A DNA stretch of 63,216 nucleotides, counting the filler, from Lenisia limosa (taxonomy: Eukaryota > Protista > Breviatea), in the NCBI GenBank assembly GCA_001655205.1. It is 19 parts of 19 records of this genome, joined end to end, with 100 filler letters (N's around TTAATTAATTAA, not from the genome) between each part and the next. Parts side by side here need not be neighbours in the genome. Positions count along the whole stretch, not along the records: positions 1 to 3,675 come from LPNZ01009754.1; positions 3,776 to 11,397 come from LPNZ01008989.1; positions 11,498 to 18,642 come from LPNZ01005126.1; positions 18,743 to 19,867 come from LPNZ01000669.1; positions 19,968 to 21,393 come from LPNZ01001883.1; positions 21,494 to 24,586 come from LPNZ01009100.1; positions 24,687 to 27,637 come from LPNZ01006371.1; positions 27,738 to 28,859 come from LPNZ01000455.1; 11 more parts are not named here. One strand, given 5' to 3'. The translations under genes were made by a program, and so were the position numbers. Each line of letters opens with the position of its first letter. The stretch's first letter is position 1. Under the pieces are notes generated by a model. It saw only the letters and a program-made list of their open reading frames with translations. It searched no databases and was not told where the DNA came from. Of the stretch, positions 106 to 60,590 are shown one piece after another.

Positions 106-3100
106 TCATGCGGCAGCGCCACCATATCCGACGCCGGATGGTGGGGTTCAACCACTAACGACGGTTCCCATTTCCCTCCAGGTATGCTGTGTTCTTTACT
201 TGTTGTCTTTCATTGATTAGCATTATCTCAATCATATCATATCAATTGCAGCACATCTATAAACACAACTGAAGGGACTAAGATCATGAGTAGCTTCATA
301 CTCTGACCGGAATCTGACCCCTTCAGGCCTCCACGCCTCCGAACATGTCCATGGCCTCCTCAACTCCTGCGGTGCGACAGAGGCGAATTTAGCCGCCATC
401 TCCGCCGCCACCGGAGGGGAAACCAGACTCACGCATTACCTCGTACCGGTTCTGGTGTGTGGATGAACCGGGCTTGTTTTTGCTTTTGTGTTTTTGTCAT
501 CTGGTATTTGTCTAGTTTTAGCGTTGGCTGCTCGTGTTTGTTATTGCTTGTTTTTTGTTTGTTTGGAGTTTCAGATTATTCGGTCGAAATTTCCTTCGTT
601 TTACNNNNNNNNNNNNNNNNNNNNNNNNNNNNNNNNNNNNNNNNNNNNNNNNNNNNNNNNNNNNNNNNNNNNNNNNNNNNNNNNNNNNNNNNNNNNNNNN
701 ACACGGTTCTCTTGTTCGAGTTGATTGTGATTTGTTTCAAATAACTAAAAGATGACTTTAGCGTTGTTATTCTTCATAACGCCCCTTCCTCACCCCCTTC
801 AGGAAATTGACGAGGCGCCCAAGGTGCTAACAGGCGACGATGCCATGTTCTTCACCAAGGTCACGAGTGCGTATAACGGCCTCGACGAGTGGAAGTACAA
901 CCCGGCTCAGCAGGCTGCCAAGTACTGGGGCCGAGTATTATGCTGCTTGCTTGAAAATGACTCCTTTTGGTTTTTGATGAAGGGATAACAATATTCTTTT
1001 TCTTGCGTTAATTGATCTTCCACTCCATGTGCTTACGTTGAACAGATACGGAGACTACACCAACGTTCGTCTCCTCCAAGCCTGGGCCGGCCTTGCCACA
1101 GTACCCTCAACGTTCATGCAGTAGGACTGGGTTATACTTATGCTATTAATCCATCCAATCATTCACCCGTTCCCCAGCATAAAATGTTCTTTCTGGTCAA
1201 ATAAAATAATACAAGTGATATACCTAAGACACGGATTAGTTTTGATTACCCTAGACACGGAGGTCGCATCACTTTGACCTTGCCTGGCGGTGTCTCATTC
1301 CCGGCATCCGCACTCTCTGTTGAACCGGTTCACGTGTCGGCTGACTACGTAAGCTCCGTCTTTCCTCCATCCTTCTCTTCTCCTTCCATCCTTAGATATC
1401 ACCTTTTTCTCTCTTTCCTTAGGTCCAGATCATCACTGAGGTTATCTGCCCCCAACCGCGGATTTTCATCTTAGCCCCCCCCCAGATTGCCATCACCGAG
1501 ACCACTGTCACCACCAATACGGTTGTTCTCGAAGTTCGTCGGACCTCTAAAATCGGCTCCCCCCCTCCCGTAAGCCGATTTCTCTATCCGTGTGAAGTGT
1601 CTACCTTCCGTTTATGGAATATTCTCTTTCAGTGCTTTCCTTTTATGTCAAGTAGCCTGGAATAGTTATTGACCTCTCAGGCTGCCAAGCTCCTCTATGC
1701 TCTGCAGTACCTCAACGGAGCTGGAGCCTCCATCTCCGTCTCAATCTCTTATCAACAGTGCGCATATTCGTCGTCGTTGCCTTTATTAATAGAATTTTCA
1801 TTGTTGTACACTATCAAATGTTCAGCCATTATTAAAATACTTCTTTTTTTGTAAATTCCTCGACCATGATCTCGATACATTATTTTTCAGGATGATGTAC
1901 GACATGTCACAACCGCTTCTTGACCCCCCTTTCGTCGTTTATCTGTCCCCAACGTCAGGCTCAGGTGCGCTATGCGGGGCTCCTCTTCTGGGATATTGAC
2001 AGTCTGGCCCTATTATGCATACTTGTCGAGTAAATAGTGATAATAGTTCCATCACTTGTCATCTTTTGACCCCCCAGTATCCCTCAAGAAAATGCTTCAT
2101 TTCGACATGCCTGCTGTCAAGTTTGCGGGTTTATTGACTCTCATATGGGATTATGCTTGGTCTTGCCTCTTCTGTTTTCTTCTTCAGTTGTGGCACTTTT
2201 GAAAGGATTACCTGTCATTGTATCGGTGTTCACACCCCACAGACTGACACACCACTACTCTGCACCTATCAAGGAAATGTCTCGTGGCACTGTGGTATGG
2301 GGATTGGTGTCTCTATTAGGCTTAAAGAAAGATATTTCTAAGTGTACTTACCATATCAGGCAACCTCCTCTTGCACTTACCATATCAGGCAACTTCAGCC
2401 CACTTTGAACAGGAGCTCAAGGCACGTCGTACTGTTTACGGCTCAACTGGCATGACACCTACTGTTGGGGGTACTTTCTTAGTCAAAACCGCTTGCATGC
2501 TTGCGAGTTTAATATCGATGTGGTACGCCCCATGTTAATACGATGTAGAAAACCAAGGGCATCGTTCTCCGCGGCTCTTTCGGCGCTACATTAGTTGCAT
2601 TAGGTAAGCCCCCTGTAATGGCAATCTGTTATTGTAGTGTGTACTTTCTTTCTACCAACCTGAGATCACATCTTCCAACTCTCTAGGCAACATTGTGCAC
2701 GATGACACAGAATACCATCCCACCGCCCCCATCACGTCCTATGTCACGTGGTATGGTGCTGAAGCTCACTGCAATTCTTATATTTANNNNNNNNNNNNNN
2801 NNNNNNNNNNNNNNNNNNNNNNNNNNNNNNNNNNNNNNNNNNNNNNNNNNNNNNNNNNNNNNNNNNNNNNNNNNNNNNNNNTCATGACTAACACCTTCTT
2901 TGACGAGACCATTGGCGTGTATGGGGGCAATGCTGGATCAACTACTTCAATGATTGAGCATTTTTGACTGGCCTAGGCACTGTTTTTTGACTTTCAAACT
3001 CGTGTGTATCAAATGTTAAGCTAACAGAGTTGATGTCTGTTTTGTTTTGTTTTTGTTTCCTACGTACATATATATACGTTCGTTACCCCCCCCCCCCNNN

Positions 3101-3624: not shown

Positions 3625-3675
3625 GTATGTTGTTGGTTACTTGGATTGCTTTCAGAGGGGCAGATATCAAGATCT

Positions 3676-11498: not shown

Positions 11499-14400
11499 GG
11501 ACATTTCGTTGATGCATACGGCGTGAAGGGACTAAGTACACCCAAGGGGAAGCCAAAAACAATCAGGGAAGGCATGGCGATAATGTATTAATTTGTTTCC
11601 TTAGATTTTGATGTCATGTCACAGAATCAAAATGATTAAAACAATCTGCCACGAAATAGCCAAAACAAACATGGGGGTCCGGACGAATTTTCCAGTTTGC
11701 GGGGATGAGCGGAACATTTGCATCAGGCTTATCATCCTAATATGGTTTGTTAAGTTGAGGACTTTCTTAATATGGTAACAAAAGAAGTTTGGACTTTCCA
11801 AATCCGGACCCCCTCCTCCAACAGTCTGAAAGAAGCCTGCAAGCGCCTTATCCTGGCGCATTGACGAGTCCAAGTCCAGTTCCAGATCCCAGTCCTCCTC
11901 TGACTCCGAGCCTGAACCTAAACACGTGAATTTATATTTAAAGATGTGAATTTGTAAATATATCCCCAAAAAAATTGAATTGGGCTCAAAGTACACATAG
12001 TTACGGATTACAGCACTCTTATACCTCGGGCACCTGCCGTCCCAAAAAAGACTGAATTTCATTATAAATCCTTGATAAATATCGATATTTTAGAGTTTCA
12101 TAGCCGATTTGGTCAATTCTCGAGCTANNNNNNNNNNNNNNNNNNNNNNNNNNNNNNNNNNNNNNNNNNNNNNNNNNNNNNNNNNNNNNNNNNNNNNNNN
12201 NNNNNNNNNNNNNNNNNNNNNNNNNNNNNNNNNNNNNNNNNNNNNNNNNNNNNNNNNNNNNNNNNNNNNCCCCCGCTCACCCTTAATTAAAGTTGAACCT
12301 TGCTTATACCCCCGCTCACCATTAATTAAAGTCGAACCTTGCTCGGTGTTGAGTGCACCTAGATCGCCAAGGTCAAAGTCGCCATCTTCATCGTCCACTG
12401 CGAGGAGGGGTGAAATTGAAAATTTTATGAAACAAAAAAAAAAGGGAGGGTAGTGAAAAACTTACGATAGAAATACAATTACGATAAAAAAAAAATCAGA
12501 ACAGATAACAATTGTGAATCATACTTAATTCCCGTTCACCTACCACACACACACAAACACAAACCACAACAACCCCTTAATTCCCAGGCACCCCCACTCT
12601 GTAGCCGGAAGCTTTCGCCTCGCTGCACGGGCCGGGCCACAGCCTCACATTCTGCAAGCAGGTCACGTGACGCCTTTGAATGCATCTGCGGGGGTGATAT
12701 GGTATAATATGGTAAAATTGGTCGCACATTAAAACAATATAATAATTCGGCATATAAATATTGGGCGACAGACATGTATACTGAGTAATATGGAGAAAAC
12801 GAGGATATTACGCAACATTACAGTTTATACGCAAAATTACGCAACATTACAATATATTACGTAAAATTACGCCAACATTGTCAGGCTCAGATGGGTACAA
12901 CAGTCCACACAAAACAAATTACGAAATAATACGAAACATTACGCCACAAACCACGTTATTTGCACGCGAGACGAAGAATGCCGCGTCACTGTGTCGATTC
13001 ATATCTTTTAGGGCTCTGCGGAAGGGGGGGGGGTAAAACGAAGGAAATTTCTTTGAAGAATTTGAGGAAAGTTACTAATATCGAACCGAATAATCTGAAA
13101 ATTGAAAAAAATTCCGAAACAAAAAAAAAAGCCCAAAATCAACTAAGTTGGCTAGCAAACATACAAAGGCACCATACTTAACCTCTATACCACCTAGGGC
13201 TCCATTTCGGTTCGAAAAAGACCGGTAAATATCGATAGTTTTCGAAGATTTTGATTTAGTCTTTTTTTTCGAACCGAAGTGAAGCCCTGATTATACAACC
13301 CACCAACCCCTCACCTTGCAATATGCATGCTCGCCTCGGCCTCAAGCTGGACAGGCGCGGACGGCCACAGTTTCAGCTGTGTAGGTGAATAGTATAATGG
13401 GGTGGAAGGAGGGGAGTATCATAGTATCATCATCCGCAATATCCCCAGATCACTTTATTCAATATCTCCCATCATCATCACCATATGTAGAAGAGAAATA
13501 AAAAAAAAACATCTCCACCAACATCATCTTGGGTTGTGAAGCACACTGCAGGCGGTTGCTGTCCAGGAGGAACGGAAGAATGTGTNNNNNNNNNNNNNNN
13601 NNNNNNNNNNNNNNNNNNNNNNNNNNNNNNNNNNNNNNNNNNNNNNNNNNNNNNNNNNNNNNNNNNNNNNNNNNNNNNNNNNNNNNNNNNNNNNNNNNNN
13701 NNNNNNNNNNNNNNNCTATGTTGGCTGACAACCAACACACAAGTATTGAAGCAAAACAAACAAAGCCCAGGTCAGTCACTTCTGCAGCCCCACATCCCCC
13801 GAACCGTGGCCGATTTCGCTACTTTTCGAGCGGAAATTATCCAAAAATACCAGGGATGTTGAAGGGGTAAATACCTGGGATGTCAATGTGTTTGATGATG
13901 GTTTATTTTTTTTCAGTTAAATAAAAAGATAGCATAAGTAGTAACCAATTGTAATATCGTAGATATTAAGAGACTTCAACTGAGACTTAACACAAAAATT
14001 TGAATAACAATTCCTCTTTTGAAATATTTTTGAGCAGGATGAGCATTTGGGAAATGTTGGATGGGAGGCGCACAGAAAACTGTGTGCACAGATTTGTAAG
14101 GTAAATGATTGGGGGAATAAATGTTAATCCCCCACACCCCCACGATATATTTTAGTAATTAATCCCCACATCCAAATTTCAGATATGATATAAGCCCCCC
14201 ATTCCCACGGCGTATTTTAGCGCGGCAGTGACGGCGGTGTTCTGATGCGACTCAGCCGGGCCAGCCTGGCCGCTCTGTCTGAATGCGGCAGCAAGGCGAC
14301 AGTGGAGCTCAACACGCAGAATATGAGCTGTTTTTGGGGTTAGGAATGGAATGAATGTCTAATCAGTCGGTAGGAGCTGTTTTTGAGTTAGATTTGCAGT

Positions 14401-17400
14401 ACTTGTTGAGAGATTAAACAAGAATGTTATATTAAATGTTGGAACTCAAACTGAGAGAATATGGGATGTTGCTATTTTTTGGATATATAAACTGGAAACA
14501 ATCATCACCATCATCTACATCATCATTATCCATTATCATTATCATCACCATCAGCACCAAAACACCACCTCCGTTATCATGATCATCATCATGAATATTA
14601 NNNNNNNNNNNNNNNNNNNNNNNNNNNNNNNNNNNNNNNNNNNNNNNNNNNNNNNNNNNNNNNNNNNNNNNNNNNNNNNNNNNNNNNNNNNNNNNNNNNN
14701 NNNNNNNNNNNNNNNNNNNNNNNNNNNNNNNNNNNNNNNNAACATCATATAGAGATTGTTATAGTAACCCAATCATTTGCCTGAAAAAATTACACATTAA
14801 TTTGTTTCTGGTATCCCTATGTAACATTATATCATGTATTAAATATAGATGTACTGTACATATAGCTATATGATACTACACAATATAATAAACAGGAAAC
14901 CAACCTTCATTGAAATACGGTGAAAATGGTTCGGAGGCGGACACTGAGCGTGGCATTGCGGGTTCATGTGCCGACTCAATGTAGGACTGGAAGGGGGGGT
15001 AAATTTGGAAAATTTATGAAACAAGAATAGTTTTCGATGCAGAAGTGTGTTTAACAACAGTTTTATTTCAATGAATATCAAACCATAACAAATTGAATAA
15101 TTTACTATCGTAATAACAGATTCACGTATTTAGTACTGCCTCAACTCTGTTAGCTGACAACAAGAAAACACAAGCCCAGGCCAGTCGCTGCAGCATCGTA
15201 TCCCATCACTCCAGCGCACGTGAAAATGGAAAATGAAATAAAACAAAATCCGGAAATTACTCTGTTGGCTAGTATTTGGAAACACACAACAATAAAAAAC
15301 AAAAAGCCCAGGCCAGTCGCTTCCACTGCTCCACTTGTGATGAAACGTCAAAAAAAAAAACATAAGGTAACCTCTGTTCAATATGCAATAACGGAAATAC
15401 GAAATACAGTGACCGGAAAGATGGGACGAAACCCCCCTACAGACCTCCACAACCGCCAGGGCTCTTTGCCAGTGTAGAATCGCAGTGGCAGTGTCGTTGG
15501 TTCGCTGCACTAAGTCGCCTAGAGTTACTAGGAGCTGGACTTGACGTAACGGGGCTGATTCATCGCCCTGTGGGGGGGGGGGGGNNNNNNNNNNNNNNNN
15601 NNNNNNNNNNNNNNNNNNNNNNNNNNNNNNNNNNNNNNNNNNNNNNNNNNNNNNNNNNNNNNNNNNNNNNNNNNNNNNNNNNNNNNNNNNNNNNNNNNNN
15701 NNNNNNNNNNNNNNNNNNNNNNNNNNNNNNNNNNNNNNNNNNNNNNNNNNNNNNNNNNNNNNNNNNNNNNNNNNNNNNNNNNNNNAGAAGCTTTGAGCTC
15801 GAGCACCTCGATTTCTTCTGAGGCTTTGGCCAGTTCATCCACACTAAACAGTCAATCACCAAATCCACAGAATTCTATTTTATTTAAAAGAACATCCCCT
15901 ATTGAAACCCTTTTTGCAGCTAAGTCTCAATTAAAACTATAATATGATTTAGCTGTAGTTAGGTGTCAGGATCAGATCTGACCAGAAAAGCCAACACAGC
16001 TTAGCGATTGATCGAGATTTTCGGTCGATTTTCGAACCGAAGGGAAGTCCTCCATGACCACATAATCACATGAAAGAAGTTTGCATATGTGTGTGCAATA
16101 ACAAGAACAAGATAACATAATGTAATAGACGAATCAGGTTGACATCAGAAATAGTCGTGGAGCATCCTCGTTATAATATATCGATATTCTGCATCGCATT
16201 GTTAAAATTAGGTTCTAGTGAAGCAGGACACCAAATGAGTGAACTATCGCATGTTCCGATTAAACAAAACATATTCCTTCCTTTAAGAACATCATCATCA
16301 TCATAACAACATGATCCATCATCATCATCATCAACAACAACAACAACAACAACAACAACATCAACAGCCCATCTCCCACCTTGTGTACTCGTCTTCATCA
16401 TCTTCGAAGTCGGCGTCCCAGTCTGATTCTGAATCCTGACCTGGAGGGAAATAATCAGGGGTAAGATAGTAAGAGTTGGGAGGGGGGGGGGGTGTCATTG
16501 GAAAAAAGAATTAAAAAGCCCAAATCAACTCCGTTGGCTGATAACACACGAGGGTTGATGTGAGATATAATACATATAATATAGCAATGAGAAAAAAAAA
16601 AATAAGGTAGTATCNNNNNNNNNNNNNNNNNNNNNNNNNNNNNNNNNNNNNNNNNNNNNNNNNNNNNNNNNNNNNNNNNNNNNNNNNNNNNNNNNNNNNN
16701 NNNNNNNNNNNNAGTATGTATTATAACACATCATACTTATAAGAGATATCATATTGATAACAGTATGGTTGAAGCTGTCCACAACACCATGTTTATCAGG
16801 GATATTCACGAAAATGTCTGGCTGAAGCTGTCCACACCATAATTTTAATATCAAATAGCAATAAAAGTATCTGGCCGAAGCCGTCCACAACACCATGTTT
16901 ATGAGTGACTTGACTAAAGTATCAGGCTGAAGCCGTACACAACATCATACTTAAAAGAAATATCATATTGAGAGAGTAACATGCCGAACATTTGAGTAAG
17001 AATCGCTGGATCTTTATGGTCATAGTTTCAACAGAGACTTTACTTATCATCATCCAGTTCAGAGATCCTCCCATTCGTAAAAAAAACACCTGAATTACAG
17101 CCACAATAACACCCAGATACACTGACCGCGAAGTCCTGACACAAATATAGGACTAATTCCCAGTCAATCATGTCAGGACTTATCGCGTTCAATGTATTTG
17201 TAGAGGAGAAATAAAACAAAGTTGTATCTGGCCAACGCCATCCAGGCCACGCTGTTAAGAAATATTGGATTATAGTGTACTCAATCATTTACCTTACAAC
17301 TCTGTGTACAGAGTTTCCTGAGTGCCACCCCAGCATACCCCCATACATTCTCGAAATGTTGTAATATGATCACCAATATCACATCAATACCCCCCTCCCC

Positions 17401-24274: not shown

Positions 24275-24851
24275 CTGGGGGGGAGAGAGTAAAATTGGAC
24301 AATTTATGAACGATAAAAAAGCCCAAATCAACTGTTTTGGGGGTGGGGGGACTGGGTTGGTAGTGTCACTTCATATGATAACACCTGCCACATTGACAAT
24401 GCTTGCTTGAAAATTTGTTAATCCAAAGCAAATTCGAATGATATATACTGACTGTGTCAAGTCAACCAATCATTTGAATGATATACACTGACTGTCGAGC
24501 GGAAAGACACAGTACATAATATGAACATATATCTGTAGAGTCCAGAAATGTGATATTTTTTGGAAATGTGATATTTTTTCGAAAAANNNNNNNNNNNNNN
24601 NNNNNNNNNNNNNNNNNNNNNNNNNNNNNNTTAATTAATTAANNNNNNNNNNNNNNNNNNNNNNNNNNNNNNNNNNNNNNNNNNNNAAAAAAAAAAAGAC
24701 TAAAATTTTCATTGAACTATGTCGGCTAGAAACACCTGAGCGTTGAACTCAAACAGGAAATTATACCTTCCATACATAAACAATAATAATAAAAAAATAA
24801 CAAAACAAAACAAAACAAAAAAACAATATGGGGGTGAAATCCTCCACAAAC

Positions 24852-27509: not shown

Positions 27510-27637
27510 CTGAAGGGGGTAAACATGGAAAATTTATGAAACAAAAAACCAAGAATTAACTCTGTTGGCTGGTATTTGGAAAACAGCAAAACAAACAAAA
27601 CCCAGGCCAGTTGCACTAGCGTGGGGGGGGGGGGGGG
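27510..27637 (-). repeat. Family B intronic element, near-complete copy ending at the dynein 3' splice site
   Basis: Sense sequence C-run-ACGCT..ACTGGCCTGGG..AGCCAACAGAGTTAATT..TTTGTTTCATAAATTTTCCATGTTTACCCCCTTCAG|exon. Confidence 0.85.
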
Positions 27638-28681: not shown

Positions 28682-28796
28682 GTACCCGGGTGGTGTGGGG
28701 TTTCACTGGTATTTGAGATGTATTTTGAAACAACACGTGCATGTATCTCTTCACGTTGTTTCATAAAATTGTCTATTTTTACCCCTTCTCCCCTCA

Positions 28797-36820: not shown

Positions 36821-37460
36821 AGCTGAAACATACAGAAGTGGCGGGACTGTCAGGTTGGAGGGGATGCGTAGTGTTGAGGATTATCTCAATCTAAGCAGTT
36901 AGTGTTATTGAAGTGGCTGAAGAACGAAGCATCTCATATGAATTACAAACTTCATATGAACAAGATATTGAACCATGTATTATGTACATGTACATGTATA
37001 TATATTTCTATTTTCGCTACAGCTTACGTAATGGTATGGAAGGCAAGCGAAAGCGTTACTGTTTTGAGGTTTAGCCTGTTGGATGATTAGATGGATGTGG
37101 GACAATGCACGCTGATAGCTATGTAATATGTTTATCATACGGTCTCTGCACAATCCCAGTCAAAAAGTGTCTCAANNNNNNNNNNNNNNNNNNNNNNNNN
37201 NNNNNNNNNNNNNNNNNNNTTAATTAATTAANNNNNNNNNNNNNNNNNNNNNNNNNNNNNNNNNNNNNNNNNNNNAATTGGAAAATTAATGAAACAAAAA
37301 AGCCCAAATCAGGTCGTACCTGGGGGTTCAGGGTAAGATATGTAGTACATGTATATGATATGTAAATAATTTTTTGGAGTGGTATTATCCATATTAAAAG
37401 CCCCAAACAAACCTTCTCAAAACGTCCACTTAAAATCCCCATTAAAAAGCCCGAACAAAC

Positions 37461-38442
37461 CTTCTGAAAACGGTCTCGTCCTCTATTTGGCTCTTTTTCA
37501 TACTCAAAAGAAGGACAAGAGCAACTGGCAGTCCCACAACGAATATGGCACAGGCTGGGGGGGGGGGGGGNNNNNNNNNNNNNNNNNNNNNNNNNNNNNN
37601 NNNNNNNNNNNNNNNNNNNNNNNNNNNNNNNNNNNNNNNNNNNNNNNNNNNNNNNNNNNNNAACTCCAAACAAACACAAAACAGGGAGTAACTATTAAGG
37701 CTTAATTCGATTCGAAAAAATATCGATAGTGAGGATTTATCGATAAATTCAGTCTTTTTACGAACCGAAGTGAAGCCCTAGTTACAATGAACAATTTCAG
37801 AAACAAGAGCAAGCTAAAACTCTGTTGAACATTAAAGGAAGAAAGGAGGGCTCAAAGAAAAAGCCCAATCGCTTCAGCAGATTAAAAAGAAAAAGAGGAA
37901 AGCCCCCCTCGCCCACCCGCAATAGCCACGGGGATGAACTGCTTATGAGTGCCTTGGAAGCACTGCACTGAAGGGTCGGAATTGAGCGTCCATGTGTCGT
38001 CATTCTATGGGGGTTAGGACCTGTCGCAAGGCAATGATACACCTCAGGCCTGCCAAAATGAAGAACAGCGTCACTATTTGGAGCTATTGGGGTGGGGGTA
38101 AATTTGGAAAATTTATGAAAAACCCCAAAATCAACTCTGTTGGCTGACAACACACAAGGGTTNNNNNNNNNNNNNNNNNNNNNNNNNNNNNNNNNNNNNN
38201 NNNNNNNNNNNNNNNNNNNNNNNNNNNNNNNNNNNNNNNNNNNNNNNNNNNNNNNNNNNNNNNNNAGAAGAAAATCAACTCTATTGCTAACAAATGTTCG
38301 CTCTAATAGAAGCCCCTCCTACCTCCTGGGAGCAATTGAAGAATGTAAGGGCTGCAGTCACAAAAGGAAGGTAGGTGAGTACAGCAAGCGTCCACATAGA
38401 TCGGATTGCAGCGTCTCTTCCAATCTTCCCCTGTTGTTCCTG
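37461..38442 (-). CDS. Multi-pass membrane protein fragment (protist 7TM-like C-terminal domain)
   Basis: SMWTLAVLTYLPFVTAALTFFNC..LQC..CAIFVVGLPVALVLLLSMKKSQIEDETVFRR pattern. Confidence 0.55.
38088..38162 (-). repeat. Family B body+tail near the 3' splice site
   Basis: AACCCTTGTGTGTTGTCAGCCAACAGAGTTGATTTTGGGGTTTTTCATAAATTTTCCAAATTTACCCCCACCCC. Confidence 0.85.
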
Positions 38443-39472: not shown

Positions 39473-42400
39473 ATGGAGGACGCTCGCTTCGTTAAAAAGT
39501 AGCGCTTGCCCAAGCCTCTCTTCCTTTACTCTTCTTTAGACGAGTGCTTGTCAATGAAATCGAGGTGGACCCGAAGGAAGACGCTCTACTGATTCATTAC
39601 CAAGTTGGCTCTTCTTGGCGTATCCGTTATTTTTCTCTCGTTTATTGAGGCAAGAGAACAAGTCAAATCAAATCCTGGCTCTATTTCACAGCAATATTAG
39701 GGGACTTTACGTTGATCATTTCAAGATTTTGTTAATGTGAAGCCAAATATATTTCATCCCCTTTCTAGCTTTAACAGTTTGTCTTTTGTTGTCCACTATC
39801 TGTGAGTGAGAATGATCTCTTTTAACTTATTTCTCGTTGCATGTGTATTTATCCAAAATTTTGAGCTTATTTCTTCAGATATGTGTATTCATCAAAAGCT
39901 ACCCTTTATCAGGAAAGTCTCTTCTTAAACGAAATAGAATCAACTTATTTTATTGTGCTCTTCATAAAACGAACTTTCTTTACACCATATAAAGCTCAAT
40001 ATCCGTGGCAGGTCTTTTCAGCGATCAGTGTATGATATNNNNNNNNNNNNNNNNNNNNNNNNNNNNNNNNNNNNNNNNNNNNNNNNNNNNNNNNNNNNNN
40101 NNNNNNNNNNNNAGCAATATCCCGGTCAGTGTAAATATCCTTGTTCTCCTCGAGAGCTGACCTTTTAAGGTTGAGGCGTCTCTTCTGGGTGAAGGAGGTG
40201 AAGACAATGTTATGCATGTTGAAACTAGACAAAATATTAAGAGGTTAGGGGGGGGGGGAGGCAAAACACTGTTTTTGATTTGAAAACAAAAGAGAGAAAC
40301 AAAGCCCTGAGATAACACAAACTATAAAACAGTTTGGAGAAGGTGGGTACTAATCATTGGAGTATGGCAACCCAATTGATATTGTGCATAAATTGTTGTG
40401 TAAATGTTCTCCTAGTATTTTCCAAAGTAGAGCCTGACGTAATAATTGCTACGACTCCCTGCAATTAATAATTAAATTTTGAATTTTGAAGTGGTACTTG
40501 AACTAGGTCACTTTGGTTCGAAAAAAGACTGTATTTCTAGATAAATCCTCGAAAGCTTTCGATATTTTACCGGTCTTTTTAGAACCGAAGTGAAGCCCTA
40601 ACTAGAACCCTTTTCAAACACTTTATTTTCAAAGTTTATCAATAAATTTCTTCACAAAAAAAATTGCAAGGAGTTTAAATTATTTTCAAGGGTGTGCTTC
40701 ACAGGGCTGAGCAGCAAATGTGACCCAAGCGCCGTGGCTGACCAAGTTCTTGCTACCGCTGATTTTATTCATAATTCTAAGGTGGGGGTTTGGGGGTACA
40801 AATGTACAATTTTATGGTGGGGGACATATACATTATTATATGTAGCTACAATGGGTTATATTATACGATATGTATCCTAATATGATGATAAACAAGGATC
40901 TGATCTCACGATTTGGTGGGTTTTGCTCCCCTAGCACTGGGCTATGTTTTGTTTTTAACCCTTGTCTTGTGTGTTTTCCAAATGCCAACAAACAGAGTTG
41001 ATTCTGGGTTTGTTTTGTTTCATTAATGTTCCTTTTTTTTTCTCTGTATTTTTTTTTTTTGTTGTGCTTGTTTAGAGTTTCAAATTATTCGGTTCGTGAT
41101 CAGTACCTTTACCAATGTTCTTCATTGAAGTTTTCTTCTTTTACTCCCCTAGCAATNNNNNNNNNNNNNNNNNNNNNNNNNNNNNNNNNNNNNNNNNNNN
41201 NNNNNNNNNNNNNNNNNNNNNNNNNNNNNNNNNNNNNNNNNNNNNNNNNNNNNNTTTTTTTCTTCATACTTTTATTTTACTTCCGCTAGCACGAGGAGAT
41301 TACACAGAGGATCGAGTTCCTCCTCAGAAGGCCACGGAAGAAAGCAGGTAGGAGAAGAGGAAATTTGTAACGCAAATGATTGGGTGGATTAATAATATGC
41401 TAAGGAGGCTTGCAGAAAGCTGTGTACACAGAGTTGTAAAGCAAATGATTGGGTGAATCAATAAATCCAATATGAGCTGTTCTCACTCTTTTAGTACTGA
41501 AGAGGAAGGGATCAGTTGCGGTTTGCAGGGGGTCACGGATATGGGAATGTTGATGGGTTTCTTTTGAAAATCTGGTTTGTGTGTTATCTTATTGATTTAG
41601 TATAAAATTTTCATATTGAACCGTATTGGTACTTTCCGTGTTAACAACAAGGTAGAAAAACGATGCCGACCCAGCGAAGCTTGAGGAATATCAAGAAGGT
41701 CTGTATGAGGATGACGCTCGCCTCAAAATTCAAAGTGCTGCAAAAATCGCCAATTTGTTCTCACAGCATCACAATTTACATGACTTCTCACAAAATGGTT
41801 TGTGGTATTTTTTTATTGCTGTTAAGGTTATCAAGAGTTTCAGATTCTTTAAATGCTTCATTGATAACACTTTGTACATGATACGTTCTGTTATGTCCTC
41901 TTCATCATTTTTAATCATTGTCCCGGATACAACCTTTTTGTCTTTATCGATATGATATTAATCTGCTCCAACCCAACATTCGAGATGCAACTTTATTTTA
42001 TTATCTCATTGCTATACATTAATATAGTGTAATATAATCCAATATCGTTGATAAGAGAGATGGTGTTGACGGCTTCGGTCAGATCTTGTTTTATTTCTCA
42101 TTTCTATACAGTAATATTATATAGCTGCAGAAATGAGCATTCCTATTTATCTGCTGCAGAAATGCTACTGAACGCGCTGGCGCGCATGTTGCGCGAAGAA
42201 GGCAAACGGAGCATCGACCTAACCACGCAGCTCCTTTCGGCCTTCTTCCATCTGTCAACGTTCCCGATCTTTCACAACGTGCTCAAGGAAGTGGGGGGGG
42301 GGGCGTTGGCTGATAAGGAAATGGGAAGGTTTTGTATATTGTGACAGACAAAAACAGTATTTTACCGGAGTTTCAGATTGAACCTTTACGGCAATATTCT

Positions 42401-44488
42401 TCATCGAAACTTACTTCTTTTTACCCACCCCCCCTTCTTCAGCTGAGAATCGGGTCCCTGACCTTGACCGTTGTGGAGAGGGTGGCAAAACGTCTTGAGG
42501 CGGCCACGAGGAAACCCATTACCGACGCGGAGGGCCAGAAGCTTGACCGTTTACTTTATTGTTGGGGGTGTACTGGAGGGATTGAGGACAAAATAAGCTT
42601 CACCGTTTACTTTATTGTGCCCCATCCCCCAGTATGTTGTTTTTTTGTTTCATATGATTATGATATTGTCATTAAAACTGTCAAATTTCCATTATTTCCC
42701 TCCTTTTTCCCAGTATGCTTTTAACCCACTAAATTACTTCATTTACGTCTACGCTGGAGTGATGGAATGCGGTACTGCAGAAGCGACNNNNNNNNNNNNN
42801 NNNNNNNNNNNNNNNNNNNNNNNNNNNNNNNNNNNNNNNNNNNNNNNNNNNNNNNNNNNNNNNNNNNNNNNNNNNNNNNNNNNNNNNNNNNNNNNNNNNN
42901 NNNNNNNNNNNNNNNNNNNNNNNNNNNNNNNNNNNNNNNNNNNNNNNNNNNNNNNNTGAACCTTAGTGAGCAAGCAGCATCTCAGTCCAAAATGAAGAAG
43001 GCGGGCATCATTGAGTTGGGGGGAATCATTGATTGGGCAATGGAGATTTGTTATAAGCAGGGCTTCACTTAGGTTCAAAAGTAAACTGAATTTTGCGACA
43101 AATCCTCGAAAATTATCGATATGCCCTAGTTATAATGCTCTGTGGTGAAATAGGATGTAATCGTAATACGGCCGTATTTCTTCAAAGTTGTAACCCAGCT
43201 ATCTGTTATGTCTTATCATTCTACATCCTTCCTTTCCAATACTTTCACTCGGAAACCGGCATGACGCTACAGCCATCTTATTGCCGCCTTGAGTCGCCCT
43301 GATGCTGACCTCGTAATGCTGATTCTGACTTTCCTGAAGTCTATGTCAGTGTACCAGGAGAGTGTTGATGAAATGGTGGGTGGGGGGGGGGGCTTTCTCT
43401 TTTCTTTATTTCTTCCTTTCTTCCTTTCTTCCTTTCTCCCTTTCTTTCTTTTTTTCTTTCTTTCTTTCTTTCTTTCTCCCTTTCAACTAGCAAGCATATG
43501 ATCGGGTATTTTATCAAACTATAAACGATTTCGAGCAAGCATGGTTGTGTGGACGGCCTCAGCCTGATACTTCCCACTGTTTAGCTGACAGAGATGATTT
43601 TGGGTTTGATGGTGTATTTCTTCTAACATATCTTTGATGCGATATCTCTGTTTCTTCTAACATATCGTTGATGCGATGTCTCTACTTCTTCTAACATTTC
43701 AGCGCAAGTTGAATCTAATGAGTCAAATGGTTGACCTCATCCCATGTGAACACACTGTAAGATGTGATAGTTTCATTTAATATCAATATATGTTTTTAAA
43801 TCATATTTTTTTTATTCATTTGTGAGCGGGACAATTTTTGTTATTTTTNNNNNNNNNNNNNNNNNNNNNNNNNNNNNNNNNNNNNNNNNNNNNNNNNNNN
43901 NNNNNNNNNNNNNNNNNNNNNNNNNNNNNNNNNNNNNNNNNNNNNNNNNNNNNNNNNNNNNNNNNNNNNNNNNNNNNNNAATCTTTGTTTACCAAATTAA
44001 GAAGTTATAAAAGCCTTACTTACCATATTAGGAAGTTATGAAGCTCTCCCTCCAACTTTGCCGCAATGTATTATTGGACCCTCGAACACGTCAGTCTGAG
44101 GCGGCTCAAAATCTGATCCCCAATGTAAGCCCTTTTTATATGACATGAATATTTTTGAGATTCGTGATGATTTGGACTGCTTCTGTCTGATACTACAGCA
44201 CTATCTGTTATAAACGTGATGTGGACGGTTTCATTCAAATCGTCTTTCTCAATTCGTCTGTTTTTGTTTTGAATTTCTGGTTTCACTATTCCAAAAGGGG
44301 ATGGAAATTACCTTGAAAATATCAACTTTTTTTGCTTTAAAATTATATTACTTATATATATATATTACTTTTAAATTACTTTGAAATCTACGGTCCGATT
44401 TCTTGCCTTTAACAGGGATCTAGATTGTTGCTCTTCTCAAAGACCCCCCTTTCCGCGGAACCGCAATAAATCTCCTCTATATTTACAG
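39473..44488 (+). CDS. KIFAP3: Kinesin-associated protein 3 (kinesin-II accessory subunit), 5' part
   Basis: MEDARFVKK|RVLVNEIEVDPKEDALLIHYQ|VEASLLGE..|..EEYQEGLYEDD..|LNALARMLREEGKRSIDLTTQ..|LRIGSL..|..MVDLIPCEH; collinear with KAP3. Confidence 0.92.
40504..40600. mobile_element. Family A hAT-type MITE
   Basis: TIRs flanked by ACTTGAAC / ACTAGAAC (7/8 TSD match). Confidence 0.8.
40930..41030 (+). repeat. Family B copy in a KIFAP3 intron
   Basis: CTGGGCTATGTTTTG..AACCCTTG..AACAGAGTTGATTCTGGGTTTGTTTTGTTTCAT. A further head (TACGCTGGAGTGATGGAATGCGGTACTGCAGAAGCGAC) is at 42752-42787. Confidence 0.8.
43058..43128. mobile_element. Family A hAT-type MITE (deleted)
   Basis: CAGGGCTTCACTT..GCCCTA flanked by GTTATAAG / GTTATAAT (7/8). 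Confidence 0.8.
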
Positions 44489-45312: not shown

Positions 45313-46055
45313 CTTCAACACCTTCTCGAACATGAGATAGTTGTCCATGGTCTCGGCAGCGATCTGAGCAACATTTGTGTCCGCAAACTCAACGAACGCG
45401 TAGCCCCTTGATTTACCGGTCTACAAAGTTAACAGCAGCTTTATTGCAGGGGAGGGGGGGGGGGGAGNNNNNNNNNNNNNNNNNNNNNNNNNNNNNNNNN
45501 NNNNNNNNNNNNNNNNNNNNNNNNNNNNNNNNNNNNNNNNNNNNNNNNNNNNNNNNNNNNNNNNNNNNNNNNNNNNNNNNNNNNNNACACACGAGGATTG
45601 AGAACAAAAAGAAAGCCCAGGCCAGACGCTTCTGAAACACCACATCCCCATCAGCAAGAGGGGGGGGGGGACAGCTTTCACATATCACATGCCCTTGATC
45701 TTTCATTCATTATACTCTCTCATTCTCTTTGTCTCCCCCCCACACATCTTCCATTCACATTCACGAGAGGAATGGGCAGAGTCAACCCAGATGCTCCCCA
45801 GCCATCATAGGGAAGCAAGATCAGTCTTACTCAGCCACGCTCACCTTGGGGTTTCTGGACACACGGATGCGATTTACTGTTCCGAACTGGCTGAAATAGC
45901 CCCTCATAGCATCTTCAAAGAAACCGAATGGGATATGTCCGATGTAGAGAACTCCAGGCACCGCTTCATAGTCATCTTCAACCTTGGTGGTAAGAAGCAA
46001 GCACGAACATGAAAGAGCTAACCTCCACCTTTGAAAGCTTCTTTCCACGTCCCAT
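45313..46055 (-). CDS. NIFK: NIFK/Nop15-like nucleolar RRM protein (5' part)
   Basis: MGRGKKLSK|..[38 protein letters not shown]|[29 protein letters not shown]. Confidence 0.9.
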
Positions 46056-46688: not shown

Positions 46689-47556
46689 GTATGAGCGTCG
46701 TTTCGATTATATTGTCTTTTTATGGGGAATAGAGGGGAAAGGGTTGTGGATTTTGAGATAGAGTCCAGACCTAACCACATATTCCGTTGAACGTTTTGTT
46801 ATCATGCGCACTATTACACTCTGTAATACGGAGGAAACGAGAAATTAGGGAGTATTAGGTAGTGTCAGCGCTTAATGTACACTGATCGTGGTAAATCTTA
46901 ACCAATTTGCTCTATAAAATCCTGTCAAGACTTCACACGTCACTATATTATGAATCCTCGTATGTTAGTTAATTCTGGGTTGTTTGTTTCATAAATTCTC
47001 CAATTTACCCCCCCCCCCCTTGCTCNNNNNNNNNNNNNNNNNNNNNNNNNNNNNNNNNNNNNNNNNNNNTTAATTAATTAANNNNNNNNNNNNNNNNNNN
47101 NNNNNNNNNNNNNNNNNNNNNNNNNGAGTATCAATCACGGCTCCGTGTAAGTAATTTTTTGAAGAAGTAAATTGACAAAATTAGAAATGGAAAAATTATG
47201 AAATAAAAAATTCCCAAAATCAAAAAAAAAGGGGGGGGTGAAAATGGAAAACTGTTCCACAAACAGTATAATCGACTCGGTTGACTTAGTGAAAAACGCA
47301 ATGTTGGGGGGTGGAGGGGGGAGGGGGTGGAAATAACTTTGGGTCGAAAGCTCTTCTGCAAACCCCGGAACTGACCCCCATAAATGCAACAACCTTCATT
47401 TTCATATCAATGCACACACTTGCAGTTGCCATTTCGGGGAATTCAATAAGAGGAATTTATTAAAGGAATTCTAAATTCCTTCAATTCTTTTTTGTGGCGT
47501 GTCTTCCCCTGGCCGAGGAGGCAGAGATTACAATCTTTGGATTTTTTTGACCTTCA

Positions 47557-48859
47557 AGACGGCATGGCGCTAGACTCCTTGGACTTCTCAATCATCGATC
47601 CGCCGATCAGAAGATCGCATCTCATAGCCAAGATGAAAAGAATCTGGCCAATTGGGTCTCAAGGCAAACCTGCGCTGCTTTATCTCTCCGGTGCGGGGGG
47701 GGGGGNNNNNNNNNNNNNNNNNNNNNNNNNNNNNNNNNNNNNNNNNNNNNNNNNNNNNNNNNNNNNNNNNNNNNNNNNNNNNNNNNNNNNNNNNNNNNNN
47801 NNNNNNNNNNNNNTCTAGGGAAACAAATAAATGCATAGAGACTCCCGTAAACCCCACATTTTCTGTAATCTCGGCATGGTTGGGTGTGACGATGTAGATA
47901 ACGGCCTTCTCTCCGCATCAGAACGTTTCTGCAATGAAGGCCTCATGGGTGGGTGGAAAGGTTTTTTTTGGTTTTGATATTATTTTGGGTTTATTTTGTA
48001 ATATTTTTTTTTATATTGGTTTAATTGCTGGTTTGGGCATTATATTGGTTTATTGGGAATGCACACCATCGTACTAATAGTTTTTTTTTTGNNNNNNNNN
48101 NNNNNNNNNNNNNNNNNNNNNNNNNNNNNNNNNNNNNNNNNNNNNNNNNNNNNNNNNNNNNNNNNNNNNNNNNNNNNNNNNNNNNNNNNNNNNNNNNNNN
48201 NNNNNNNNNNNNNNNNNNNNNNNNNNNNNNNNNNNNNNNNNNNNNNNNNNNNNNNNNNNNNNAACCAAAGGAGAAAGTCATTGATGTCGCCGTAAGTGAT
48301 CATTCACAGGTGGGTAGGCCCCGTGGGTAGGCCCCACATTCTCCATCATTTCGCCCCAATTCTCAATTTATACACCCCAAGTTCTCCTTCACTTCACCCC
48401 AATCCATTCTTACCCCGTCCTTAGCCTCGACTTGCGATAGTGACGTCGAAACGTATCATGGTACTTAGTCACACCCTAAAGAAGATTACCGAGAAATACG
48501 CTCCTGCTGTATGTTGTCGGGAGTAGGTCTTTTGAGAACAAGAATGCAAATATATCACATTGAGGAAGAAAAATTCAATTATATCACATTCCGTACCGGG
48601 ACAAATATTACACATTCCGTACCGGACAAATAAGAAAGGAACAAGGAAATAGCTAGTACAACAAAATTATACAACTTCTTGGTTATAGTACGTATGAATA
48701 TGTAATATTTTTTTTAGTATACATCATAACCCTACCCCTATGCTTTGTTTGTTTTATTGCTCCCAGCATTCGTGTGTTGTCAGCCAACAGAGTTGATTTT
48801 AGGTTTTTTTTTGTTTCATATATTTCCAATTATCCACCCCCCCCCCCAGACCCAACCCT
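47557..48859 (+). CDS. Hypothetical multi-exon protein fragment
   Basis: Splice-bounded open exons (PKEKVIDVAVSDHSQ|PRLAIVTSKRIMVLSHTLKK); frames of the earlier exons are uncertain. Confidence 0.35.
48745..48849 (+). repeat. Family B body+tail ending in CAG acceptor
   Basis: GTGTGTTGTCAGCCAACAGAGTTGATTTTAGG..TTTGTTTCATATATTTCCAATTATCCACCCCCCCCCCAG. Confidence 0.85.
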
Positions 48860-50459
48860 NNNNNNNNNNNNNNNNNNNNNNNNNNNNNNNNNNNNNNNNN
48901 NNNTTAATTAATTAANNNNNNNNNNNNNNNNNNNNNNNNNNNNNNNNNNNNNNNNNNNNTTTTGCAGCACCGTATTCCATCACTACAACAGCGTACGGGG
49001 GGAGGGGGTGAAAAAGGGGAGGTTTGAGCACTACAAAAACAGGATAGAAGAAATGGTGAAATAATATGATAGATGGAATATTGTAAATTAATACGATATG
49101 ACATGATAAAACAAGGTTAACAAATACATTAGAAGTACCTCCCCCCCCCCCCCACATCNNNNNNNNNNNNNNNNNNNNNNNNNNNNNNNNNNNNNNNNNN
49201 NNNNNNNNNNNNNNNNNNNNNNNNNNNNNNNNNNNNNNNNCTAGATGAATTAGGGGTAGTAAATAAAAAGAAATCAACGGATTTTACTTTTATCAATGTG
49301 AAAAAACAGTTTCGCAATATAGCAATAAACAAAACGTGATTCCTCAAAGAACACACTGTGCTATTTTGTATCTTTATTTACATTGTAGCTTTTGAAGTCA
49401 AGCTCATTTATTTACAGCGAGGTAAAAATAGGGTTGAAATATGGAACAACGATTAGCCTTCAAGGTTGTTGTGGTTAGCTATTGTTCGAGAGACCTCCAA
49501 CCCTTACAAAATGAAATGTGTTTTACCGAAATAGTGGATTGATATGTTGTTAATCTTGTACAGAGCGCTTTTTGCGGTGTATTTTTTTGTTACGAAAAAG
49601 GTAGAGTATTATTTTTAGAAAGAACAATAATATATATTTGCCAGTCGTCGATATTGTTGACAGTAGCAATAATTTGATGCATCATCGTACAGCGAGGTTT
49701 GATTTTTGATACTAATGTTACGATAGAGCTGGTAGAGGGAAAGCCCTTCCCCAACTTCTTCCAAATTGCCAATTCACCTGAAGTGGAATTTAAAGGATTC
49801 AAGTCCAAACGCTCTCAGCTTCAAGCAAATATGGTATGAAATAACGACATACATTTTTTTTTATAAATTTAAACAACGAACTTGAATATAACTAGACTCT
49901 GGGAGTCCTCAAGTGTCCCCAGCCACAGCCCCAGAAATTCGCCGCACCCCCAGCCCCAAACATTTCAGCTACTCCCAAGCTCTCAGCACCGCAGATTCAG
50001 ACCAAGTCTCCGCTTTTGAGCCCAAGCTGTCAGTCACCCAGCTACAGACCCCCAAGCTCTCAGCACCGCAGTGACAGACTTCCCACACAGAGGTTAGGGT
50101 TTTACTTCCCAAGATCGCCCAATTCCATCTTTTGAATTACCCAAAAACCAGGACTAAAGAATACCCCGAAAACCTGGAATAAATGGCGTACGCGCATGGT
50201 CAGTGGCGTGTTGGAGCGTATTTAACAGACCCTGATGATATGTTAAATAANNNNNNNNNNNNNNNNNNNNNNNNNNNNNNNNNNNNNNNNNNNNTTAATT
50301 AATTAANNNNNNNNNNNNNNNNNNNNNNNNNNNNNNNNNNNNNNNNNNNNGATGTTAGGATGTTAGGATGGGTGTAGATGAAGATAGGATGTTCTCAACA
50401 TGTATGCTCTAATTTTGTAATATTGTACGCTAGTAATATTGATTTATATTGTAACCTAA

Positions 50460-57949: not shown

Positions 57950-60590
57950 CTTTGAACACTTGTCACATTCCCCTGACCCCTTTAGCGCAAGCGTAACGCC
58001 TGTATTCAATGCTGCAGGAGAAAAGAGCGGTCCTTTAACAGGAGCTCCATCAAGTATGTTCAGAAACTTGAGAAACGAAGAAGGGCTCATGGTGGCAGGG
58101 TCTGTGTTGCTTCCACGTTGTTCAGCAAGCAATTTCGATTGCACGGAGCACGGTATCACGTCTACTCGAAAGTCGATCATATAATCATATCAAGTGGATT
58201 TTGGTCAAAAATGTTTATTCAAAGGCAGAAGAGAAAATGATAAATTCACACTATTAAATCTGAGATCACCACAAACATTGTCACTCAGCAGCATGAACCG
58301 CGGGTCAATGGTGTACATTTCCTCCTCGTATGCTAGCTGCTCGTTGGATCTCTGGCGAATCACATCGTGGGTAGCGTGAATGAGTCCTGGGGGAGGGGGG
58401 AGGATGAAAAATGGATATTTATCAATGATAGTTCACACGTACACGTGTGAATATGATCCAAAAAGGAATGTGAACATCCATTGTGAGATGATATAAAATG
58501 CTTAGAATCCTTCCTATTCCCCTATACAGCTCACCTCATCAGACGCCTTCATTAAGACCGCCTTCGCTCCCTTCATTGCGCGTCGATCCCCTCGCTTCAC
58601 GTCAAGCATGCCCAAGGTGACACTTAGGGGTTTATGAACATTTCTTTCTGCCCTTCTGTGGAGCCGAAAGGCTGCCACTCTTCTGTCTGAACATGACTAT
58701 TCTTCTAGAGAGGTTTTGACGCATTTTTTAGATCTTTAAACGGATGCCTTACTAATGTAATAAGTTAGACTCTATCATATCTCAATATATATTATATATC
58801 GATATCTCTTTTTTTTTTTTTTTTTCTCCTTTTTNNNNNNNNNNNNNNNNNNNNNNNNNNNNNNNNNNNNNNNNNNNNNNNNNNNNNNNNNNNNNNNNNN
58901 NNNNNNNNNAGATACTTTTTAGTGGAAAAACCTTGATCAAGGCGGCGTATTGAAGGGTGATCACCCTGAAGAAAAAAAGTTTGTTTGAGCTGCTTTTTTT
59001 TTTAAGAGAAATAATATACATGAGAAATCTTGGGAAACAAATAAATACATAGGGATACCAGAAACAAATTACCATACTTCCGCGCCCACGCTCCCTCTTT
59101 CCCACTGATCAACGGCGGGGAGTGGGGAGGGGTGTGTTTTTCTACTCCCGCAATTATTTCTAGTATTTTTGTATTTTCCACCACTTTCAAAATCCGTATC
59201 ACATAATCTAACGGTGAGCCAGCGGAAGTTTTCCTAATATCAGTGGGATCCCAGCGATCTTTCACTCAAACAAAAAAAACTTCCCCGAAACACACTAGGT
59301 GCTCGGAGAGCAGCTAGCTGAGTACTGGCTAACCAGGCTCAGTCTGTCACACCTCTATGTGATTTCAGGGAAGGGGGAAGAAAGAAAGCATATGTTTCCA
59401 AGGAGATAGGCCCCCCACCCTTCGGCTATGTCGCTGCTCCGACATCTGGCTCTGGAGGCCCTTGAGGGTGGCTTCCATGTCCATCATGCCCATGCCTGCG
59501 GAGAGGGGGGGGGAGGTATTAATGGAAAATTCTATGAAACTAAAAAAAAAACCCAAAATCAACTCTGCTAAACATTTGTGAAACACACGACGTTTAAAAA
59601 AGTGAAAGAAATAATAAGTAGTAGTGTTTTCTATTGTGTTCATTTTTCCAAACCCAATTTGATACAATGCTATCCTGATGCCTCACTCCAATATGAAACA
59701 AAGAGAATAGAGAAAAGTTTTTTTTTGAAGAATTAATGATAAAACGTATCTTTTATTTAAACTGAAGTGGGCACCATACTCCCAGCCCAAAAAAATTAGG
59801 CTTGCCTTGGGGATGTATAGAATGGGGGGGAGGGGGGAGTATTCCGATTGTAGATTGGGTTATTGGATTAGTGTGAGGTAAGGGAGTTCCTTATTTTCCA
59901 TATTTCGTACGAGCCATCAGTACATAATCTTTGGACATTGTGAGGATGAGTATCAGATTTCAAAGATTTGTCAACAGTCAGTTTGACTATTTAGAATGAT
60001 GTTAACGAAATTGATGAAGTTTTGGGGACCCCAATGGCTTGGAGAGAAACTGCAATAGATTCCATAGAGGGGCAATCAAAGGCTTTAAAACAGTCAAGGG
60101 TAGATAGGTTACAGTGGTCCCACCTTTTCCTCGTTCAGAGCTTTTTCGAGCATTTTGATATCTGTTGCGTAGTGTTTCCTTCGCTGAAAAAACCTTGCTG
60201 TGAGGGGTGGATGAGGTTTGGACTAGATTCAATTATCTTTAAGATTCGTGTATTAACTGTGGTCTTTTAGTGGAAGTGCTGTATCCCCTACTTTCTTTGG
60301 GATAGGGCTGACGAGGCAGCTTCTATGAATAGAAGGGGGGGAAAGCCCACGGAGGCATTCGGGGTAAATTGATGCAATAAGCTCCAGTACGTTGTCTGGC
60401 ATGAGGTTTAGCATACTATTATATATAGCAATGAAAAATAAAGAATAAGGTAGTATCTGGCAGAAGCCGAAGCCGTCCACACCATCACGCCTAGTGATTC
60501 TGTCTTTACCTGGAGAGGTGTTGTTACCACTAGAGAAATCGACTTTACTTCTGGGGGAATTATGGGTAAAGTGGAGAGTTATCTTGATCA
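57950..60590 (-). CDS. Hypothetical multi-exon gene(s)
   Basis: Splice-bounded open exons (GMGMMDMEATLKGLQSQMSEQRHSRR; LIHATHDVIRQRSNEQLAYEEEMY; DNVLELIASIYPECLR); gene boundaries unresolved. Confidence 0.35.

Follow-up and report, generated by a model that had tools for sequence, protein, structure and literature searches.

A Sense-Oriented Intronic Repeat of Lenisia limosa With a Putative Branch-Point Signal at Its 3' End

Introduction

Does a mobile element that carries its own 3' splice signal create new introns, or does it settle in introns that already exist? The question is raised by family B, a repeat of about 150 nucleotides (nt) in introns of the breviate Lenisia limosa (assembly GCA_001655205.1). 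An earlier note on a 63-kb stretch of this genome, hereafter the window, had left two options: family B creates introns in the manner of introners, or it inserts at intronic C-runs and is kept only in sense orientation because it supplies a putative branch point and a pyrimidine tract. We analyzed this one fragmented window (63,216 nt; 19 short contigs with linkers between them and numerous N gaps) together with summaries of contig depth and consensus. As argued below, the data fit the second option.

Family B Is a Modular and Abundant Repeat Family

Family B is a real and unusual repeat family. Profiles of four modules (head, body, tail1, and tail2), applied at a threshold of at least 8 bits, gave 8, 15, 11, and 4 matches in the window, respectively; the reversed window gave 0, 0, 0, and 1, and locally shuffled windows no more than 0.2 apiece. 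Most matches are seeds of the profiles and 7 are non-seed sequences. They group into about 23 loci, among which 12410-, 42367+, 43572+, and 47270- extend the list of the earlier note, and their body cores share 53-93% identity (mean 70%). A module match was recovered at 16 of the 19 positions listed in that note. Position 48961 stays below threshold at 7.2 bits, the three 21-nt head repeats at 28797 have no profile match, the tail directly before them at 28755 being the matched part, and 476 is matched solely through a different tail, tail2 (565-604). The single tail type first described must be abandoned, as four loci have this second tail in place of the first or after it.

In DNA run X2, a unique exon has a summed contig depth of 25, compared with 72-81k for tail1, about 62k for tail2, 70k for the head core, and 16-22k for the 5' end, so that family B reaches about 3,000 times the depth of unique sequence; summed contig depth differs from copy number and is taken here as an order of magnitude alone (thousands). 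It is also not independent of the assembly, because X2 may be its source. On a single 521-base stretch carrying family B fell 857 X2 contigs, and in these contigs the boundary of the family is sharp at its 5' side. Short B-like pieces are present in the RNA run, possibly from DNA or unspliced RNA, and an exact 22-nt body motif had no match in metagenome contigs.

Position of Family B and the Branch-Point-Like Signal

Splice junctions in this intron-rich genome were partly set by transcript-derived proteins matching the window, for MAD2 (P0001) and NIFK (P0079). Two KAP3 junctions are backed by gapless homologue alignments; a third KAP3 junction tested in this way was out of frame and gained no confirmation. 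The remaining exons come from a self-trained exon finder with frame continuity, which predicted 106 exons that were then hand-curated.

Of the 13 loci in which both a tail and an AG are visible, 9 have the last branch-like A of the tail at 11-22 nt from the AG end, compared with 1.4 expected under uniform placement, and none of 200,000 simulated runs reached nine abutting loci. Counting as misses three loci without a tail-to-AG link brings the proportion to 9/16. The claim that the tail runs into the acceptor therefore stands for nine loci and fails for the remaining four. Family B introns measure 152-966 nt (n = 12), versus 41-555 nt with a median of 133 for B-free introns (n = 33).

B-free introns show a peak of a TNAC word at -9 (12/56; 4.0 per position at -7 to -13 versus a background of 0.72). 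The host branch-like word is YTNAC, represented at 63 B-free acceptors by CTCAC (8), TTCAC (7), CTTAC (6), TTTAC (6), and CTAAC (3), one mis-placed acceptor having been dropped from this set and five acceptors of B introns without abutment included. CTAAC, initially taken as the usual host word, thus accounts for 3 of 63 acceptors. Since TTTAC is among the YTNAC forms of B-free introns, the TTTAC of family B belongs to the host branch-word class; its distance from the AG is about 6 nt greater. Among B acceptors, 8 of 10 have TTT(C)AC in their final 30 nt, compared with 8 of 64 others (p = 3e-5), and the word is so constant that it appears to be borne by the element. C-runs are also longer at B acceptors than at other acceptors (p = 1e-5). 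Judging from sequence, the terminal TTTAC and C-run of family B likely take over as branch point and pyrimidine tract, and this branch-point-like signal likely keeps the host introns spliceable. The transcript-defined NIFK intron shows another arrangement, in which 189 nt precede family B and the intron's own TTAAC at -9 follows it.

Insertion Site and Ends of the Copies

At 20 visible 5' ends, the upstream flank of 20-30 nt resembles the end of an intron lacking its AG. With element starts set by eye, so that some flanks may be older family B sequence, YTNAC is found in 8 of 20 of these flanks (background 17%, real acceptors 50%; p = 0.012), and their C content is 6.25 per 15 nt, versus 2.7 in the background and 5.6 at acceptors (p = 3e-6). 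The flank thus resembles an orphaned branch point and C-tract that an insertion would have left behind. Consistently, loose-end consensuses from other contigs, each with an agreement of about 0.5, give a branch-like word and pyrimidines before the head (93 contigs) and a long C-run after the tail (21 DNA contigs).

The two ends of family B differ. The 3' end is fixed and the 5' ends are ragged, about 4 of 24 visible ones being intact by eye, and X2 depth falls from the tails to the head core to the 5' end, indicating 3'-biased retention. Copies stack head to tail at 15219, at 28782, and at other loci. Lariat read-through was considered as an origin of these head-to-tail junctions and is disfavored, at least one base being kept after the A.

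Family B Is Likely Not an Introner

The two introner surveys considered here call for similarity that extends to both splice boundaries, and they reject secondary insertions (PMC9860276, PMC12130899). Among 17 introns with a visible donor, 16 have 29-845 nt between the donor and the start of family B, a set that includes boundaries fixed by the transcript-derived protein (NIFK) and by homologues (two KAP3 introns); the sole copy starting at a candidate donor is that at 2917. Similarity near the 3' splice boundary is found in 9 of 13 loci and is missing in four. Because in most of these introns (16 of 17) family B does not extend to the 5' splice site, a pattern that is filtered as secondary insertion, it is likely not an introner and likely lengthens existing introns without creating new ones.

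The opposite reading, that family B created introns whose 5' parts were later replaced or extended, draws on an intact 5' end that opens with a donor-like GT hexamer, a 3' end that reaches the acceptor region, the 2917 copy, and a weak head likeness of the intron at 443. It is highly improbable in our view. The sequence that precedes family B in those 16 introns is unrelated to it, head similarity at the donors of B introns is not above that of other introns (16 versus 54 introns after exclusion of four mis-placed donors, p = 0.12), family B has no fixed AG, and an acceptor-like orphan flank lies upstream. The introner option of the earlier note is thus not supported.

Intron positions were also compared through NIFK/Nop15-like sequences. 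The matched region is uninterrupted in 84 loci (4 from a prokaryote collection and 80 from metagenomes), this set being the best contiguous matches retained, hence selected for being uninterrupted, with transcripts included; viral contigs yielded no relatives. The B intron of NIFK lies between codons K57 and T58, and that of MAD2 between Q67 and V68; human NIFK presumably has an intron at the former boundary.

Orientation of the Copies

All 21 family B loci with a callable host strand are in sense orientation (p = 5e-7 by locus and 5e-4 by the 11 genes), as had been claimed. Host strand was assigned from Pfam, homologue, transcript, or weak PDB evidence at 8 loci and from predicted exons at 13. 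The count leaves out 47270- and 48961-, which are uncallable and both compatible with sense.

Of 17 visible 3' ends, 14 lead into C-rich sequence and none into G-rich sequence. A C-run thus always comes after the 3' end of family B, which implies that orientation is tied to the target or to the tail. G-runs of at least 5 nt, mirroring the C-runs of acceptors, lie within 25 nt of 18 of 70 donors (e.g., 26519-, 27434-, 42291+, and 43376+). Reversed family B was found at 0 of these 18 donor-side runs, versus about 9 of 20 acceptor-side runs with family B (p = 0.001, hand-counted). By eye, donor G-runs and acceptor C-runs pair in no pattern. Many assembly gaps begin at donor-side G-runs.

Scored as acceptors, reversed intact heads (n = 3) reach 9.9-10.5, above the median of real acceptors (8.7) and the 99th percentile of intronic decoys (8.3). 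We infer that two forces lie behind sense-only family B: orientation tied to the C-run, and a purge by selection of reversed copies, including any in donor-side G-runs, since a reversed head reads as a strong acceptor.

The same acceptor scores would suit a reversed introner, in which the opposite strand of family B, with a GT start and a strong acceptor end, creates introns in exons, the copies seen here being by-products. We give this idea almost no credence: there are no reversed-B introns among the approximately 70 donors and 74 acceptors examined, the reversed GT lacks the +5 G of most donors, and in other contigs the flanking sequence consists of pyrimidine runs and is not exon-like.

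They would also suit a DNA-level element (MITE-, Helitron-, or Crypton-like; MITE, miniature inverted-repeat transposable element) that inserts in C-runs either way and survives only as sense copies in acceptor C-tracts, other arrangements being lost because they add a competing donor or acceptor. The sense 5' end equals a donor hexamer used in the window, and the G-runs at 18 of 70 donors, none with reversed family B, agree with such losses, as do the defined 5' end, the modular internal deletions, and the tandem stacking with an element of this kind. Moreover, target-site duplications (TSDs) are absent from Helitron and Crypton derivatives (PMC12130899). Nevertheless, we regard a DNA element as unlikely, given the 3'-biased retention, the absence of any G-run after the 17 visible 3' ends together with a loose-end consensus that is a C-run, and the lack of the usual terminal structures. 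No terminal inverted repeat (TIR) was found in family B (best match 4 nt, p = 0.36 and 0.9), a degenerate-TIR idea failed too, and a search for a terminal hairpin of the Helitron or Helentron type gave no significant fold on either strand, with conserved termini judged by eye.

Twelve folds gave z between -2.1 and +1.5 and no consensus structure, and the inner and outer stems proposed in the earlier note are 70% paired, compared with 67% in shuffled sequences, a level reached by 31-44 of 500 shuffles, so that neither this fold nor a structured, snoRNA-like intronic RNA is upheld. ARAGORN found no tRNA in family B, and Rfam returned nothing at gathering score, solely matches with E > 3 at one locus; a head derived from an RNA polymerase III transcript (tRNA, 5S, or 7SL) is thus not in evidence.

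Mode of Insertion

The reading that we favor, and hold to be probable, is a secondary and probably RNA-mediated insertion into existing introns, accompanied by replacement of the splice signal. Family B would be a non-autonomous element resembling short interspersed elements (SINEs) and copied through RNA. It would insert into the C-rich stretch that separates the branch point from the AG of a pre-existing intron, where its C-rich 3' end may pair with the G-rich strand of the target; such pairing would fix the orientation and allow new copies to stack on old ones. The TTTAC and C-run of the inserted copy would then restore the displaced branch-point and pyrimidine signal. Target-primed retroposition yields a retained 3' end, ragged 5' ends, a homopolymer tail, and self-stacking. 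The RNA step is argued from this polarity of the ends, because family B offers no TSD, B-box, partner long interspersed element (LINE), or C-tailed SINE precedent.

Several points weigh against this reading. Selection on the 3' end and decay of the rest would give the same end polarity. A permutation test on 14 flank pairs found no TSD (p = 0.36), although a duplication within a C-run would be invisible; the absence of both TIR and TSD had been noticed from the start and is borne out. Candidate TSDs at 24341 and 40935, good by eye, were no better than cross-pair controls and were set aside. There is no B-box in family B, a loose A-box match is uninformative, no partner LINE was seen in the window, and no precedent for a C-tailed SINE was found in the literature. 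Element starts were, as said, set by eye. Four of the 13 loci lie off the AG, at 53, 85, 145, and 200 nt, and the three further loci without a visible tail-to-AG link do not abut either; at such sites the host shows a branch-like word of its own. Five loci end in gaps or contig ends. With respect to orientation, 13 of the 21 host strands come from the self-trained finder, whose acceptor score rewards the C-rich ends that family B supplies. The control repeat C/D is in sense at 7 of 9 copies by the author's reading (difference from family B, p = 0.08), and 7 of 10 reversed copies tested, with decayed or no heads, make no strong acceptor (scores 1.3-6.6). Finally, RNA contigs are too shallow and bridge no B intron.

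Copying of intron 3' ends to ectopic sites, by gene conversion or template switching seeded by the branch-like word and the C-run, would dispense with a dedicated element altogether. It would explain why tail1, tail2, and another repeat, repeat E, are unrelated and yet all end at acceptors in a branch-like word and a C-rich tract, and it agrees with the lack of TSD, TIR, and promoter. It is improbable all the same, because the roughly 3,000-fold depth relative to unique sequence, together with the sharp 5' boundary, points to a few source sequences, and because the old signal remains upstream and is not replaced.

A bolder version of RNA-mediated insertion starts from the lack of an RNA polymerase III promoter, because of which the RNA may be the excised intron itself. 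Family B could then be a promoterless retroelement living on the spliceosome, excised intron RNA being copied into the C-tracts of other introns by a borrowed reverse transcriptase. Host transcription would make the RNA, splicing would cut the 3' end of family B at the end of the excised intron, and the inserted copy would rebuild the branch point in its new intron. The source, to judge from the GT-like 5' end, would be a complete short intron, and the same route would have captured tail2 and repeat E independently. This proposal is speculative and, in our estimation, doubtful; if it were true, intron 3' ends would form a mobile class in this genome.

Comparison With Known Systems

Introners resemble family B in being short, non-autonomous, and of high copy number, in carrying a 3' splice signal, and in that they may lack TIR and TSD; unlike introners, which show similarity to both splice boundaries, family B reaches the 3' boundary alone, inside longer introns (PMC9860276, PMC12130899). 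What is available of PMC11282704 holds nothing on insertion into existing introns. As for intronic Alu and other SINEs of mammals, PMC3088655 describes depletion near exons of the orientation that provides cryptic acceptors, which matches the purge that we infer for reversed family B. According to the same paper, mammalian transposable elements are depleted near acceptors, whereas family B is strongly enriched there and ends in a word of the host branch class (PMC3088655). The distance between branch point and AG is anchored in introns of some protists, as described in PMC2483917, and the host branch-like word here likewise lies about 9 nt from the AG. Because the host word is kept at this distance, an insertion there must bring its own branch word. 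The anchoring described there concerns intron-poor genomes and involves no mobile element, whereas the present genome is intron-rich and its word is weak (PMC2483917).

A further parallel comes from the biology of retroelements, where the 3' tail of target-specific elements without long terminal repeats (non-LTR elements) and SINEs matches the target. Like them, family B has a fixed homopolymer 3' end, ragged 5' ends, co-orientation with its target, and a habit of stacking on older copies. Unlike them, it bears a C-run in place of an A or microsatellite tail, its target is a splice signal, and no tRNA head, B-box, TSD, or partner LINE was found for it.

Nowhere in an intron is an insertion normally more dangerous than in the interval from branch point to AG. 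By concentrating in this interval and restoring the displaced signal, a family would follow a safe-harbor strategy; no family targeted to the interval was found in the literature searched, most subscription journals being outside its coverage. The scored tail of family B adjoins 9 of 74 acceptors examined, in a curated and non-random set, and, if our reading is true, many branch points in this genome have a mobile origin. Family B would stand between ordinary intronic transposons and introners, where introner pipelines miss it by design, and would offer a route for intron lengthening and turnover of the 3' signal.

Family B Copies and Their Host Genes

The genes of the window include KAP3, an NIFK/Nop15-type RRM gene, MAD2, and probably dynein-2. 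A Pfam search of 77 exon frames named KAP, RRM, and HORMA alone; among the host labels given earlier, dynein-2 therefore survives with weak support (E 0.013-1.3), and the kinase, TPR, and TM labels were not recovered. NIFK/Nop15 (46055, -) and MAD2 (46447, +) are divergently transcribed with about 390 nt between them, each with an apparent tiny or split first exon.

On the minus strand, copies close to an acceptor comprise a newly found tail-only copy at 12410..12445 (branch-like A 14 nt from the AG end at 12398), a body with tail2 at 13033..13169 (19 nt; 13016), and two head-to-tail copies at 14999..15341, the second interrupted by another repeat (final A at 14 nt; 14987). Late body and tail at 24289..24341 (16 nt; 24275) lie in a putative kinase-like host, so labeled from a motif, with no Pfam or PDB match. 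A near-complete copy with a shortened head occupies the dynein-2-like host at 27519..27622 (11 nt; 27510). A canonical body and tail lie at 38098..38162 (16 nt; 38084), with a body remnant across a gap at 38271-38293, and a further body and tail at 59516..59597 (22 nt; 59496). On the plus strand, tail2 at 42367..42424, a new locus in KAP3 intron 42291-42442, has its A 20 nt from the AG end, its junction being gapless in 8 of 10 homologues, and the copy at 48737..48849 (body, tail, C-run, and AG) has it at 14 nt.

Other copies lie further from the AG. Tail2 at 565..604 (+), found by profile in intron 443/455-802, is 200 nt away across a gap. The body, decayed tail, and C-run at 16483..16561 (-) end 53 nt away, with a separate branch-like word closer. 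The head, gap, and tail at 26686..26920 (-) in a dynein intron stop 85 nt short, repeat E lying in between, and the body, tail1, and tail2 at 40935..41146 (+) in KAP3 intron 40782-41289 lie 145 nt from the AG used, at a junction gapless versus homologues. In the NIFK/Nop15 intron 45844-45421, the head and body at 45587..45655 (-) start 189 nt after the donor, upstream of the acceptor's own TTAAC at -9. A body alone, newly found, sits in the middle of a KAP3 intron at 43572..43607 (+).

Because the window consists of linker-joined contigs with gaps and ends, the 3' ends at 2917, 13716, 37277, 42752, and 46972 are lost. These belong, respectively, to a diverged copy with head, body, and C-run at 2917..3097 (+), whose 3' side is lost in a gap; a head and body at 13716..13800 (-), 408 nt after the donor; a late body and tail cut by the contig end at 37276..37311 (-), before which stands an acceptor-like AG with a GT immediately after it; an intact 5' head in a KAP3 intron at 42747..42787 (+), with the remainder in a gap; and a late body, tail, and C-run at 46953..47019 (+) in the MAD2 intron from 46689, with its AG past the contig end. 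The copy at 28755..28859 (+) consists of a tail, found by profile, followed by a C-rich spacer and the three 21-nt head repeats up to the contig end. Host strand is not callable for two decayed tandem copies at 47170..47301 (-), and not firmly so for a 5' head after a C-run at 48960..48996 (-), cut by the contig end. A probable tail remnant adjoins an AG after a gap at 35330..35361 (-), unscored by profiles and outside the 21-locus count.

Two details beside these copies deserve mention. At 37311-37335 (-), the acceptor-like AG and immediate donor-like GT just before the family B remnant resemble a recursive splice site or a zero-length exon, in a single case. At 42539-42618 (+), a 24-nt direct repeat overlaps the end of a KAP3 exon, and by eye its copies enclose a weak head-like stretch.

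Other Repeats of the Window

Repeat E (25279-25353, 26603-26675, and 27247-27304, all -) is a second module, present in the dynein gene in three copies, all in sense and all terminating in a branch-like word, a C-rich tract, and an AG. It may be the same phenomenon as family B or a local duplication. The composite repeat C/D, which served as orientation control, lies in introns at 7432-7553, 14062, 16561-17337, 20728-20834, 38959, 41363-42115, and 60402-60484, mostly in sense with two antisense copies. At 55097-56370 (+), broken frames with likeness to reverse transcriptase, RNase H, and recombinase, and with no Pfam match, resemble a DIRS-type retrotransposon in their motifs; they represent a possible class of mobilizer for family B, with no link to it in the data. 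The contig at 28960-34258 holds no family B copies and has lower exon scores and a different intron style; it may derive from another genomic compartment or organism. Palindromic elements are also present: a MITE of about 100 nt, with at least 15 copies or fragments (13194-13288, 25003-25099, 40503-40600, 62326-62426, 62998-63084, and others), reaches a depth of about 75k in X2, and a second palindromic family is found at 17114-17201, 25409-25636, and 44712-45108.

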